Below, one piece after another: positions 30,916 through 49,693 of a stretch of DNA of 64,000 nt. The DNA is from Candidatus Bathyarchaeia archaeon (GTDB taxonomy: Archaea; Thermoproteota; Bathyarchaeia; Bathyarchaeales; Bathycorpusculaceae). The stretch is from contig JAVZLH010000002.1 of the NCBI GenBank assembly GCA_038883855.1, positions 1-64,000 on the forward strand. Direction: 5' to 3'. Every line of letters begins with the position of its first letter. Position 1 is the stretch's first letter. The notes beneath the pieces were generated by a model. That model saw only the letters and a list, made by a program, of their open reading frames with translations, was not told where the DNA came from and did no database searches. A program made the translations under genes and the position numbers.

Positions 30916-31007
30916 GGGTCCGTGGCGCAGCTTGGATTGGCTTAGCTTCCAAAAAGCGCGTCGGCCTTCTAAGCCGGAGATCCTGGGTTCAAATCCCAGC
31001 GGACCCG
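30916..31007 (+). tRNA. tRNA-Arg(UCU) with a 17-nt D-loop intron (30938-30954)
   Basis: Acceptor stem GGGTCCG/CGGACCC, D stem GCGC/GCGC, anticodon arm TCGGC-CTTCTAA-GCCGG, T arm CTGGG-TTCAAAT-CCCAG. Removing the intron restores the D loop AGCTTGGATA. Confidence 0.93.
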
Positions 31008-31118
31008 CTACTATTGAAGGCTTTGCACTGTTATTTTTAGAGGGAAATTTTAAATCTGCGTTGCAATAATAAATGGAAATGCTTTAATGTTTGACTTGTA
31101 GGTGTATAAGGGATTGTT

Positions 31119-43208: not shown

Positions 43209-43414
43209 ACACCTAAAACCTTTACTTAAATAAGGGCTGGCGTATTGGCTGTACCCCAAAACAACGTAGCGAATTCTCCCATCAAATCCAATGAGTTTGT
43301 CGAGGACACGAGCATATTTTCGTTGTGATAACCCAACGTGATATATCTCTCGATGCAGCCCATAAAATATTAATTCATGTATGATTGATGGAAGGGTGAA
43401 GGATTGTGTTGACA

Positions 43415-44238
43415 ATGATTGATAAGTCTGAGGATAGGAATTTGGTGTTGTTCTTCTTGGTTGCTTTTGCATGGTCGTGGTTTTTCTGAACACCGCAGAT
43501 ATTGGGTTTTAACTTTTATGTGGCTCCATTTGGTCCATGTATGGCTGCTTTTCTACTTACCCATCTTCAAGAGTGTTATAGAGGAGTTAAGAGGTTGTTG
43601 GTAAAAGGGTTCGACCCAAGGATAAGAAAAGTCTGATATGTTCCTGCCTTTTTGTTATGGCCCATTATTGCAGGCTTTTCCATTTTGGGAGCGTCGTTGA
43701 CTGGGGGTCTACTCCTGAGCTGGTCACCCTGTTTCAGCCATGGCTAATTCTTTGGAATTTTATCTACATATTCTTTCTCGGCGGTCCTTTTCAAGAGGAG
43801 TTCGGATGGAGTGGTTACGCGCTTCCACGTCTCCAGGCGCGCTACTCGGCCCTTATCTCCAGCGTGGTTTTAGGAGTGATATGGGCTATTTGGCATCTAC
43901 CTTTGAACCTAATGTATTTTGCGGGTCCCCAATACCAAGTTGGACTTGCATGGCTGTCTAGCACAGTTATTCTGTTCATTTTCGTATCAATACCCTTCAC
44001 TTGGATATACAACAATACTGGCGGCAGCATCTTAACCGCTTTAATATTCCACACAATGCTTAACCTTTCAACCTATGTTATCTTCCCAGTCTTTGAAACA
44101 GAAAACGGCCCAGCCTACTACTTCTTCTTAATAATCTTTGTTGCCATAATTATTTTAGCGATCTTTGGAACAAAAAGAATGGTTCGAGATAAAAACCAAG
44201 TTAAAACTGAAATCAATAGTCGTGATAATTTTGGATAG
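43415..44238 (+). pseudogene. CPBP (CAAX protease-like) intramembrane metalloprotease pseudogene
   Basis: MIDKSEDRNLVLFFLVAFAWSWFF*...RKV*YVP has in-frame TGA at 43487 and 43634. A shift near 43705 leads into QEEFGWSGYALP, WAIWHLP and IFHTMLN. Confidence 0.85.
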
Positions 44239-44787
44239 GTTCATTATTTACTATTTCAGCTTGGTTTTGTTAATTGGCGGTTTGGCCTACGCTCCGTGGG
44301 TTTTGGCTTCGTATGGCATGTTTCCTTCCGAGCCCGTTTTTGTTTTTGTGATTGTTGGTGGTGTCTCTCCAACGATTGCCGGCTTATAATGGCCAAACTT
44401 GAATTTGGGGGAGGAGCAGCAGAATATTTGTTCGGTCAGTTTGGTCGTAAGGGCTTTTCAAAATTATGGTTTTTAGTGGCTGTTTTTGTTCCTTTGGTTC
44501 TTGCAGTCTTTGTAGTCTTGTTACGGTCTATAGTTGGAGGAACATATGCTCTGGACTTGATGAAGCTGATTGAGTTTCCGCCGATTCTAATTGTAAGCTT
44601 CTTGACGAACATGTGGGAAGAAATAGGATGGAGAGGCTATGCTTTACCTGCACTGCAAAAGAAACACGATGCGCTAATTTCGAGCCTAATTGTTGGGGTG
44701 TTTTGGGCATTCTGGCACTGGCCACATTTTGCAGTCAAAGATAGCGCCATGGCAGTTAACTATCATAATAATTATTTTTGCATTTAA
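44231..44787 (+). pseudogene. Second CPBP family protease, frameshifted and truncated
   Basis: LDRFIIYYF...GGVSPTIAGL, a shift near 44386, then WEEIGWRGYALP and WAFWHWP. The C-terminal H..N motif is missing. Confidence 0.8.
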
Positions 44788-44967: not shown

Positions 44968-44998
44968 TTGAAAAAAGTAAAAAGGAAAGAAATAGGAA
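44968..44998 (-). terminator. Pyrimidine/oligo-T tract after the small ORF
   Basis: The minus strand reads TCCTATTTCTTTCCTTTTTACTTTTTTCAA, typical of archaeal oligo-T terminators. Confidence 0.5.
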
Positions 44999-45015
44999 TG
45001 GTAAGGGTGGATTAC

Positions 45016-45069
45016 TTACGGTGGTCCTCGATCGGTTATTTTGTATCTGAGCACTTTTTCCATTATCAT
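45016..45069 (-). CDS. Unannotated 17-aa peptide MIMEKVLRYKITDRGPP
   Basis: GGAGGTGA SD (45075-45082) lies 5 nt before the ATG, with a TATA box upstream (45122-45129) and an oligo-T tract downstream. Confidence 0.65.
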   Translation of the reverse strand: MIMEKVLRYKITDRGPP

Positions 45070-45086
45070 ACAGATCACCTCCATTA

Positions 45087-45175
45087 TTCTCGTTTTTTCA
45101 TTTTTATAATGTGAGAAAAAGATATATAAGTTTTTCGCATTGTAACAAAATTTTAAAACGAGAAAAATTTATAAA
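45087..45175. promoter_or_regulatory. Palindromic bidirectional promoter/operator
   Basis: TTCTCGTTTT (45087-96) and AAAACGAGAA (45155-64) form a perfect inverted repeat centred on TATATA (45123-28). There is an inner inverted repeat at 45105-45118/45131-45144 (11/14 match) and a second TATA, TTTATAAA, at 45168-45175. Confidence 0.65.
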
Positions 45176-45215
45176 CCACACCTACAAGTAGCATAATAAA
45201 GTGTGGTGATTAAAA

Positions 45216-45599
45216 ATGATCAACAAGGGATATTCGATCGAGATCAAATCTGAGAGTAAAACAGTTGAAGTTAACTTCACTTCAGCCATTAGCTTTGATA
45301 TGGTAGAGGAGGCACTAAACCAGTTAAGAAAGTATATTGCAGAGGATTATCGAATTAAGTTGATAGGCTACATTAATAGGGAATACAACTATCTTAGAGC
45401 CTTCATGCTGGCTCTTTCACTTTTTGGTAATGAGAGTCGTGTAATTTTTGTGAATAAAGCAAGATTCAATAGGGCTGAAAGAAGGCTAAAAAAGAGACAA
45501 ATGCAAGAGCTGAGGAGCAAGGGCTATAATGTTAAACAAATATCCGAGGAATTGGGTGTACCTTTGAAAACAATCTATAGATGGCTTATGGAGAGATGA
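45216..45599 (+). CDS. Protein with a C-terminal helix-turn-helix (resolvase/HTH_23-like) and an unassigned N-terminal alpha/beta domain
   Basis: LRSKGYNVKQISEELGVPLKTIYRWL; GGTGA SD before the ATG. Confidence 0.8.
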   Translation: MINKGYSIEIKSESKTVEVNFTSAISFDMVEEALNQLRKYIAEDYRIKLIGYINREYNYLRAFMLALSLFGNESRVIFVNKARFNRAERRLKKRQMQELRSKGYNVKQISEELGVPLKTIYRWLMER

Positions 45600-45617: not shown

Positions 45618-45907
45618 CTAAACAAGGAGAACTGATATTATTCCACTTAGGAAAATACCGTCAAAGTTCCGGTTCCGCCCGATACTTGCTATTCTAGCAC
45701 CTATCTCCGGAATTTTGTGCAAGTTTGATATATCTGCGCCGATTAAAGTGCCGAATACTCCAGAAGCGTATGCTATAATTGCTGGTGCGCCTGAAGGTAA
45801 AAGGTACGCCATATAAGCCGCTGTTAACGGCGGGACAAAGGCTGGTGTAACAATTCCTAAACCCTTAACAGGTTTGGCAACAAGGTGCGTAACTAATGCC
45901 AAAATCC
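45618..45907 (-). pseudogene. DUF1614 family membrane protein, C-terminal fragment
   Basis: AKPVKGLGIVTPAFVPP, AYASGVFGTLIGADI and ASIG..FDGIFLSGI. The N-terminal half is absent and the Gly-rich motif is garbled. Confidence 0.75.
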
Positions 45908-46095
45908 TCAAAGAACCAGCTTCTGAAGAACGGAAAACGTCTCCTCCTAAACCATTCAGGGAACTCCTCATCAAAAGACATCTTTCTAATTCCTTAATAT
46001 AAAAAGGAGCCCTACCTTATAAAATTTTGTACTAAGGAAGAAAATATGGAAACTTTTAACAGCAGAACCAATAGGGTTAAATCGCATAAAATTAA

Positions 46096-48330
<2,235 letters not shown>

Positions 48331-48555
48331 AACGCGATAATCCTTCAAAAATTTAAAAATAATGCTGATTTGTGATTAAGCGCTTTACACGAAAATTTCA
48401 GCGAGTTTTTCTTTATAGATTTCGGCTTCTTTATCAAAACTCTTTTAATTGCAGAGCGAATTTTGGTCCATATTATTTTGTCCCGTTTTTGTCTAAAAAA
48501 TGCTAAGTGACTTATTGCTGCTTTTCGGCTGGACTACTTTTAATCCAATCCTCTC

Positions 48556-48938
48556 AGGCTGTTGCATGTCCACAGTGCGGCTCAACTAAAATCATATATG
48601 ATGGAAAAAGGTATTATAAGCAAACAATTATTCAGCGCTACCTTTGCAAAAACTGTTACCCAAAACTAAAACAAATTCATTTGCACATGTTTCACCATTG
48701 GAAAGCCACAATGGAATATCACCGCGCAAAAACATAAAATGGGCCCAACAACTTCTGGGACACAAGAAACTTGAAAACACAGACTTTTACACGCAGCTAA
48801 TAAACTTTGAAAGCGACGAATGGCACGTGGCCACAGCCCACAATCATATAAGAAGAAAAGAAGCTAATTGAGGCATGTTTTAAATTTGTCCGTTACAGTG
48901 AAAAAGACGAAGTGGCTATATACTGCAAAAGAAAATAA
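48556..48938 (+). mobile_element. Tyrosine recombinase/integrase remnant (internal deletion, frameshifts) abutting tRNA-Val
   Basis: An N-terminal CPQCGS...QRYLCKNC zinc ribbon joins directly to IHLHMFHHWKATMEYH / QQLLGHKKLENTDFYTQL (degenerate H-x-x-R, LGH, catalytic Y) and a KRK* end. Confidence 0.8.
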
Positions 48939-48970
48939 AATATTCAAGCTCCGCAGTAGACTAGTTCAGT

Positions 48971-49045
48971 GGGCCGGTAGTCTAGCTCGGTTAGGACATC
49001 CGCTTGACGTGCGGAAGGTCACCGGTTCAAATCCGGTCCGGCCCA
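48971..49045 (+). tRNA. tRNA-Val(GAC), no intron
   Basis: GGGCCGG-TA-GTCT-AGCTCGGTTA-GGAC-A-TCCGC-TTGACGT-GCGGA-AGGTC-ACCGG-TTCAAAT-CCGGT-CCGGCCC-A. Confidence 0.96.
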
Positions 49046-49693
49046 CTTAAATTTTTAAGTGAATCCTTAAAGAAGCCAAAGTGGAAGCCTTTAAAAGCAT
49101 GGCTAAAAGCCTCCTGTAAGGTATTAATACTTCAAATACTTCTCTTTAAAATGCTTAAGCATGCTCTAGCTCTGCTTGTAAAACATCCATAGGCGGAGCG
49201 TTGCTTGAAACGGAGACTTGGTCTCAACAGAGAAGTCAATTACATCGCGAACATCGCCAACGCTTCGCTTGCCGAAACTACTTCATAGGGTATGAGCGCT
49301 TTTCTACTAATCGAGAAAGAAGCCAAAATTAACAATTTTCATGAAAAGCAGATTCCAAAACTAGTTTCTGCGCGTGGGTAAATTAGCACAATGCGCTCGA
49401 AAAACACATGCACACTACAGTGCGGGAGAAGCAAAGCATACACTTAAACAATTACATGTAAAACCTCCAAGAAATCAATCCGCAAAAACAGGAAAAAGGG
49501 AAAATGGAAAGTCCCAGCTAAAAGTATAGGTTACCGCTTGGGCAATGTTTTCTCCTTTGTTACCCTAATCCATCTGGTTAACGATGTCTAAGAGAAGAAC
49601 TATATGTTGTAAACGTATTGGTTAAAGGCTAAACTTTGGTTTGAGGATTAAAAGGTTTTATAAGTCATTGGGAGAATTCTCTTGTGATGGCGT

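Follow-up and report, generated by a model that had tools for sequence, protein, structure and literature searches.

A conserved RGPP micropeptide gene divergently paired with a helix-turn-helix gene in Thermoproteota: a candidate archaeal ribosome-arrest module

Is a 17-codon open reading frame (ORF) in an archaeal genome a gene, and if so, could its product act on the ribosome that makes it? The ORF lies in the first 64,000 nucleotides of contig JAVZLH010000002.1 (assembly GCA_038883855.1, Candidatus Bathyarchaeia archaeon), a stretch that we call the window. It runs on the minus strand from an ATG at 45069-45067 to a TAA stop at 45018-45016, 17 codons plus the stop in all (45016-45069), and its product, MIMEKVLRYKITDRGPP, ends in the core ITDRGPP, encoded at 45039-45019. 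A preliminary description of the window had proposed this ORF, at these coordinates and with this product, together with a full expression unit, and we find both. The Shine-Dalgarno (SD) sequence GGAGGTGA (45075-45082, minus strand) stands 5 nt before the ATG, AT-rich TATA-like boxes lie upstream at 45100-45109 and 45121-45130, and two oligo-T tracts on the minus strand (44971-44984), T5 at 44984-44980 and T6 at 44976-44971, follow 35–48 nt past the second Pro codon. Judged from their sequence, these tracts probably serve as the archaeal terminator, and the message, monocistronic, would be about 120 nt long. In the window's ORF listing the frame starts further upstream, at an ATG at 45084, for a 22-aa version of the same product. 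On the opposite strand, 146 nt from the micropeptide ATG, begins an intact gene for a 127-aa protein with a C-terminal helix-turn-helix (HTH) domain (45216-45599, plus strand), also as first described; the ORF listing contains no same-strand gene close behind the micropeptide ORF.

Taken alone, a 17-codon ORF that ends in RGPP is not beyond chance, because the window's own genome (1.1 Mb in 24 contigs, 85% complete) holds 30 six-frame occurrences of R[GA]PP. What lifts it beyond chance is conservation. We collected 73 database homologues of the HTH protein, whose names point to Bathyarchaeia-like Thermoproteota as the group of the window's genome, and used the protein to scan one genome per prokaryotic species, which gave 39 loci. 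Five were left out of all counts: L023, where only 40 nt of upstream sequence is available, and L039-L042, which match the HTH motif only and three of which are from Streptomyces. The assessable set thus consists of 34 loci and the window (n = 35). HTH identity among these 35 is 41-83%, and the hosts are Bathyarchaeia, Methanomethylicota, Culexmicrobium, Thermofilaceae and other Thermoprotei metagenome-assembled genomes. A divergent short ORF with the core [IV][TAN][DK][RC]GPP is present at all 35, 172-225 nt from the HTH start. The core reads RGPP at 32 of them and CGPP at three (L007, L018, L037). With the start-choice rule that we applied, 34 of 35 loci have a GGAGGTGA-like SD 4-8 nt ahead of the in-frame start; the start of L013 is doubtful, and L025 is the locus without an SD under this rule. 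The preliminary description had suggested looking beside HTH homologues for a divergent short ORF with a conserved SD and a synonymously varying RGPP, and the outcome of this check is positive.

Searches that start from the peptide lead back to the same gene pair. A degenerate DNA pattern for ITDRGPP has matches in 12 of 401 genomes of the class, against one control match, and an HTH homologue adjoins the motif in 11 of the 12. The twelfth match has neither a start codon nor an HTH gene and, from its sequence, looks like the expected chance match. These matches are unevenly spread: none of the 103 other genomes of the window's own family is motif-positive, compared with 4 of 25, 2 of 3 and 4 of 71 in three other families. 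A peptide profile run against a collection of 5.8 billion proteins retrieved 31 small ORFs of 25-72 aa; the motif is present in all 29 that are complete, and those that carry a name are called 'hypothetical protein'. The pairing of micropeptide and HTH gene is strict.

Selection on the core acts on amino acids. Six of its seven codons vary synonymously across the 35 loci: Ile is encoded by ATA, ATC and ATT, Thr by all four codons, Asp by GAT and GAC, Arg by CGA (7), CGC (2), CGT (3), AGA (19) and AGG (1), Gly by all four codons, and the second Pro by CCA, CCG and CCT. Only 7 of 245 core codons depart non-synonymously, three of them from Arg to Cys. From these synonymous changes, which include both CGN and AGR codons for Arg, we conclude that the amino acids are selected and not the DNA or RNA. 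The two Pro codons are under a further constraint at the nucleotide or tRNA level. The first Pro is CCT at 33 of 35 loci and the second is CCA or CCG at 34 of 35; at the same loci, an invariant Pro of the HTH gene is spread over CCT (13), CCA (11), CCG (5) and CCC (6), and the background share of CCT among Pro codons of the loci's long ORFs is 28%. As a result of this bias, the Pro-Pro codons (45019-45024 in the window, and the same codons in L004-L038) read CCUCC at 33 of 35 loci, which is the complement of the GGAGG in the ORF's own SD about 70 nt upstream. Pairing of the SD GAGG with the CCUC of the Pro codons, four base pairs in all, is the sole consensus pairing that RNAalifold proposes; it finds no conserved structure (-0.9 kcal/mol, no covarying pairs). 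The window RNA folds no better than its shuffles (z 0.29), and no Rfam family reaches its gathering score in the micropeptide region.

The geometry of the peptide is constrained too. From Met to the second Pro there are 21-22 residues in 28 of 34 loci. The 10-15 residues that precede the core are amphipathic and charged, with Leu at -7 (27 of 34), Met or Ile at -5, Ile or Leu at -4 and Lys or Ile at -1. We found no N-terminal signal or membrane segment in the peptides of the kind needed for force-dependent release. Total length varies from 15 to 53 residues, and the variation after the core is in a tail of 1-31 residues without family-wide conservation. The preliminary description had treated a Pro-Pro-stop ending as a feature of the system. 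This does not carry over to the family: the stop follows the prolines directly in 5 of 35 loci (the window and four others), and the other 30 have a sense codon there. Stalling at termination, as in TnaC or gp48, is therefore unlikely to be the general mechanism. What does recur past the prolines is the T tract. A run of at least five T lies within 40 nt after the Pro codons at 29 of 35 loci (median 20 nt), compared with 9.7% of 1750 random positions in the same loci, and at five loci it comes ahead of the in-frame stop.

Between the two genes in the window, a repeat search finds an 86-nt imperfect palindrome (45083-45168) with 43-nt arms that are 72% complementary, centred on a TATA-like ATATAT. 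It contains four half-sites of the ATGAGAA type: TTCTCG at 45087-45092, GTGAGAA at 45111-45117, TTTTCGCAT at about 45132-45140 and CGAGAA at 45159-45164. A leftward pair of boxes resembling a transcription factor B recognition element (BRE) and a TATA box, GCGAAAAA and TATA, is read on the minus strand at 45121-45138, and a rightward pair, CGAGAAAAA and TTTATAAA, at 45159-45175 would form the plus-directed promoter. A MAFFT alignment of the 35 intergenic regions shows the same plan at all loci, with two inverted repeats, built from four ATGAGAA/TTCTCAT half-sites, on either side of TATA-like boxes, and with BRE/TATA-like elements facing both ways. From their sequence, we take these elements to be putative operators and promoters of a shared control region. 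Inverted repeats of the form TTCTC[AG]...[CT]GAGAA are not in excess in the window's own genome (8, against 6 in a reversed control). The earlier suggestion of a regulator dedicated to the micropeptide fits the strict pairing and a conserved palindromic control region that has no surplus of look-alikes elsewhere in the genome.

The partner protein has three parts: an alpha/beta domain specific to the family (residues 1-80), a linker helix (residues 86-101) and, at residues 106-125, a three-helix HTH of the resolvase/Tc3/TrpR type. Pfam HTH_23 matches residues 89-124 with 30.4 bits (cut-off 24.6, E 3.2e-7). The AlphaFold (AF2) models are confident, with a predicted local distance difference test (pLDDT) score of 83.8 over the full length and 86.4 over the N-domain. 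Structural matches to the HTH are DNA-binding domains of serine recombinases, Tc3 transposase, TrpR and DeoR (Z 6-6.8 over 42-46 residues). For the N-domain, Foldseek against the Protein Data Bank gave nothing at E <= 1e-3 and weak STAS matches; in a wider fold search, run both for the complete protein and for its N-domain by itself, the best match was an Rpb5-like jaw domain (Z 6.2, 77 residues, root-mean-square deviation 3.1), with STAS-like matches at Z 4.4-4.8. These values fall below the level at which they mean more than a common arrangement, and the N-domain has no convincing structural relative. An ESM Atlas search of the partner returned nothing usable. A profile search of 1.84 billion cluster representatives found about six full-length clusters, other matches covering the HTH alone, and thus the partner family is small, specific and tied to the peptide. 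As regards a serine recombinase catalytic domain with its active-site Ser, the protein has no Pfam resolvase-domain match, its alignment has no invariant Ser in the first 20 residues, and no recombinase catalytic domain is among the listed fold matches of the N-domain. PADLOC, NCBIfam and PHROGs gave generic or sub-threshold HTH matches only, for instance Csa3/CasR at E 0.004-0.006.

What could such a gene pair do? We tentatively favour a stand-alone nascent arrest peptide of the RGPP type under a dedicated repressor, and would put its chances somewhat short of even. The two genes would make up a self-contained module in which the short ORF is a translated gene. The HTH protein would bind the intergenic palindrome and, as a repressor, set the transcription of both genes. 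When the message is translated, the conserved part of the peptide would act as a nascent chain and bring about a programmed elongation arrest at the Pro-Pro codons, the proposed P- and A-site codons on which the codon constraint exactly falls. Since the message would end about 20 nt past these codons and no conserved target gene follows, the arrest would act on its own message and ribosome, opening no downstream cistron, and its output would be in trans: either the release of the peptide is gated, or ribosomes or tRNA-Pro(GGG) are tied up. The genome has a gene for this tRNA. Arrest during elongation is favoured by the near-invariant R-G-P-P, the fixed chain length, the indifference to the tail and the Pro-codon constraint. 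A fixed distance from Met to the prolines followed by an unconserved tail is what one would expect if the function were complete upon decoding of the Pro-Pro codons.

Bacterial precedents are close in the core and different in architecture. RGPP is described as the most robust arrest core in bacteria. Like the bacterial RAPP/RGPP peptides (ApdA, ApdP, the SecM-type RAGP and the RGPP of Streptomyces lividans), as reported (PMC12992588, PMC10951233), the archaeal micropeptide has an R-G-P-P core near the C-terminus of a small ORF with its own SD, and residues past the second Pro are unimportant. Unlike them, it has a chain of about 22 residues to the prolines and no signal or membrane segment; such a chain would lie wholly inside the tunnel, and therefore a pulling force could not release it. 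Also unlike them, it precedes an oligo-T tract and no regulated cistron, and it adds an invariant I-T-D and a constant divergent HTH gene. If arrest occurs, these three extra residues suggest archaeal contacts of its own.

In length, the micropeptide resembles a second group. TnaC, SpeFL and the cytomegalovirus (CMV) gp48 uORF2 are short stalling ORFs of about 22-34 residues whose whole peptide sits in the tunnel and whose C-terminal prolines are critical; gp48 uORF2 has 22 codons and ends in PP-stop, and both it and TnaC stall at termination. The archaeal peptides share the length class and the C-terminal prolines, and the window copy itself ends in PP-stop. They differ from these leader ORFs in having no conserved downstream gene, and the stop follows the prolines in only the five loci given above. 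This also bears on the earlier suggestion that the micropeptide had lost its cis target, which our data do not support, as no group of loci keeps a particular gene downstream and the Pro codons are followed by an oligo-T tract. Apart from the HTH gene, no gene cluster is conserved around the loci, downstream of the micropeptide or elsewhere. The next gene is convergent at about half of them and at the others is an unrelated housekeeping gene (aldolase, DtxR/FeoB, KaiC, DHDPS, HMG-CoA reductase).

Several points weigh against an arrest peptide. RAPP peptides are reported not to cause arrest in rabbit reticulocyte lysate. The key Arg of the bacterial RAPP motif stacks on psi2504 (PMC10951233), and in archaeal (Haloarcula marismortui) and eukaryotic ribosomes U2504 is described as stacking on A2055 and pointing away (PMC5154188), so that the bacterial Arg-psi2504 contact may be unavailable in Archaea. 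Both the reticulocyte result and the position of U2504 call for caution in assuming the bacterial mechanism in archaea. An Arg-to-Ala change is reported to abolish arrest in bacteria, and three of our 35 loci have Cys in place of Arg. What an arrest without a downstream target would be for seems hard to see. Avoidance of the motifs is not visible in the ORFs of the window's own genome, where RGPP occurs once against 2.0 expected and RAPP three times against 2.3, counts that are too small to carry much. The CCUCC bias could reflect pairing with, and masking of, the SD as an alternative to a tRNA-specific stall, or both. Finally, the tail is not always indifferent: the residue after the prolines is most commonly Ile, in about half of the loci, and one metagenomic subgroup (P0247-P0251) has a conserved Lys-rich tail. 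These two features indicate that the complete peptide is made and may matter.

A further point against concerns the peptidyl-transferase centre (PTC). A preprint (10.1101/2024.11.12.623245) describes PTC sequence variation, including U2504C, in Thermoprotei and Methanomethylicia; those Bathyarchaeia genomes that could be checked, a same-genus one among them, are canonical at this place. The window's genome has no assembled 23S rRNA. Across 30 genomes of the class, a 15-nt PTC motif with the canonical U2500/U2504 sequence is matched exactly in eight, including a same-genus genome and one module-bearing genome; allowing one mismatch makes the search noisy, and it gives no link to the presence of the module. 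Two genomes of one genus (G222 and G054, genus g52) gave ATCTCGACGTCGGCT in place of the canonical 23S PTC motif; should these matches fall within 23S rRNA, they would amount to a U2504C-type change.

Of the other explanations, the one that survives best is that the finished micropeptide is a co-repressor or anti-repressor ligand of the HTH protein's N-domain, with ITDRGPP as the binding epitope, and no stall signal, of a peptide-regulator switch or of an antitoxin-like pair. We think this unlikely, if well worth keeping in mind. It has a model in the Rgg/SHP systems of Gram-positive bacteria, in which a peptide gene of about 20-25 codons is divergent from the gene of its HTH regulator, an arrangement and size that the archaeal pair shares. 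Unlike Rgg, the partner carries its HTH at the C-terminus, next to an alpha/beta domain of 80 residues, and lacks a TPR domain; its Pfam matches are to HTH families only. Unlike SHP, the micropeptide is not hydrophobic and is without a secretion signal; the lack of a signal sequence also counts against a ligand more generally. Strict co-occurrence and divergent arrangement would follow naturally from a switch of this kind, as would an N-domain that is confined to a small family and has no other recognisable ligand-binding identity, yet the CCU-CCR codon constraint and the Met-to-Pro-Pro distance of 21-22 residues would be left unexplained. The conserved subgroup tail and the frequent Ile at +1, which indicate a full-length product, suit a ligand; an epitope that is C-terminal at five loci and elsewhere is followed by up to 31 unrelated residues does not. 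A complex prediction with alignments for the pair at L006 (the 127-aa protein and a 35-aa ORF) scored 0.00 and gives no evidence either way on binding.

Clearly less probable is a toxin-like or addiction/stress module, in which the HTH protein represses an effector peptide that harms translation in trans. Proline-rich antimicrobial peptides, which bind the ribosome tunnel, and the bar minigenes of phage lambda, which deplete a tRNA as peptidyl-tRNA, offer possible models, the latter for tRNA-Pro(GGG). The CCU bias would fit the sequestering of one tRNA, whose gene is present, and the unit is self-contained and looks autoregulated, with no excess of operator-like sites elsewhere in the genome. 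The divergent genes are at odds with this idea: unlike a type II toxin-antitoxin system, the pair is no co-transcribed operon, the peptide has 15-53 residues, and PADLOC matches are sub-threshold and of the HTH type only. Its patchy distribution (12 of 401 genomes, none of 103 in the window's own family) and unrelated housekeeping neighbourhoods recall such a module, but those neighbours are ordinary chromosomal genes and not islands, and the pair's deep conservation across classes is more like that of a housekeeping regulator than of a selfish element. Neither PADLOC nor the phage families gave more than generic HTH matches, and we did not find the HTH family in a viral contig collection.

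That the conserved stretch is non-coding, a DNA operator or a structured or antisense RNA with an incidental ORF, can draw on the nearly invariant CCUCC and on the GAGG-CCUC pairing being RNAalifold's only one, and is essentially excluded by the third-position synonymous pattern with both CGN and AGR for Arg, by a frame, start codon and SD kept in loci down to 41% HTH identity, and by an RNA without covariation, with a fold like that of shuffles and without an Rfam match.

Returning to the arrest peptide, how new would it be? A full-text literature search, with supplementary ORF lists outside its scope, turned up no arrest peptide from archaea; neither ITDRGPP nor TDRGPP was mentioned, and the string DRGPP occurred in three unrelated papers only. 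The main text of a 2025 survey of RAPP/RGPP peptides covers bacteria only and uses the word 'archaea' zero times. By this comparison, the module would carry an RGPP-type core into another domain of life, and its architecture, a stand-alone gene with a partner repressor, would be new as well. It is tempting to go further and see in it the first programmed arrest peptide of Archaea, with its own promoter and terminator and a dedicated divergent repressor, in which arrest, gated release or capture of tRNA-Pro(GGG) is itself the output; we regard this wider claim as doubtful for now. If it were true, bacteria and archaea alike would exploit the RGPP weakness of the peptidyl-transferase centre. Bacterial and eukaryotic arrest peptides with regulatory roles have been studied well, and the module is a short, sharply defined and deeply conserved archaeal candidate. 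It makes clear mutational predictions (for R, D, each P and a synonymous CCU codon), and with its partner regulator and compact control region, nascent-peptide arrest in archaea becomes directly testable. An arrest that works at high temperature would also be useful for making stalled complexes of archaeal ribosomes. Whatever its function, it is a rare instance of so small a microprotein, about 22 codons, being kept across Thermoproteota classes, and genes of this kind are mostly missed by annotation pipelines.

The window copy is an atypical member of the family. Its chain to the prolines is the shortest of all loci, 17 residues from the ATG at 45069 (22 from that at 45084); it has Glu at -7, where Leu is found in most loci, its first Pro codon is CCA rather than CCT, and the stop comes directly after the prolines. 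The module is also flanked by gene remnants on both sides. This copy may be somewhat degenerate, although it has an intact ORF, SD, control region and partner gene. Among sequencing runs, those that contain this stretch are all labelled hot-spring metagenomes, with no RNA run among them. Four hot-spring runs yielded contigs only and decide nothing; one of these contigs, 151 nt long and within the HTH gene, comes from a run labelled metatranscriptomic that is 'probably DNA'.

Around the loci, the 31 neighbouring ORFs that we scanned belong to unrelated housekeeping families. The preliminary description had called the genes on both sides, CPBP and DUF1614, decayed, and this holds in part. The DUF1614 ORF (45618-45974, minus strand) matches profile positions 76-171 of 171 only; it aligns to residues 144-233 of a 238-aa homologue from the same genus, about 140 N-terminal residues being gone. 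On the other side are two tandem Rce1-like/CPBP ORFs (43406-44787), of which one is apparently frameshifted at its start and the second is truncated, matching profile positions 5-56 of 93 only. In two same-genus genomes the region has about 68% DNA identity, and its genes are spread over different contigs.

Downstream of the HTH gene, a CDC48 gene (46135-48330) has 93% and 91% protein identity to the CDC48 in the same place in L012 and L005, and its best match in the two same-genus genomes has 62.6%. In L004 and L027, CDC48 is present as fragments only. With CPBP and DUF1614 remnants here and CDC48 fragments there, the surroundings of the module carry gene remnants in several genomes.

Two further tRNA-related observations concern the window at large. 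A tRNA-Val(GAC) at 48971-49046 has two short ORFs ahead of it (region 48507-49046). The first (48507-48737) has weak zinc-ribbon/InsA-like Pfam matches at E 2e-4, below the cut-off; the second (48644-48871) has no Pfam match, and to our eye its end resembles a tyrosine recombinase C-terminal box. Together they may be the remnant of an element that integrated at the tRNA. ARAGORN also predicts a 93-nt tRNA-Phe with the unusual anticodon AAA at 30916-31008, which Rfam scores at 30.6 bits against a threshold of 29. The window's genome has a normal tRNA-Phe(GAA) as well, and the tRNA-Phe(AAA) could be intron-bearing or degenerate.

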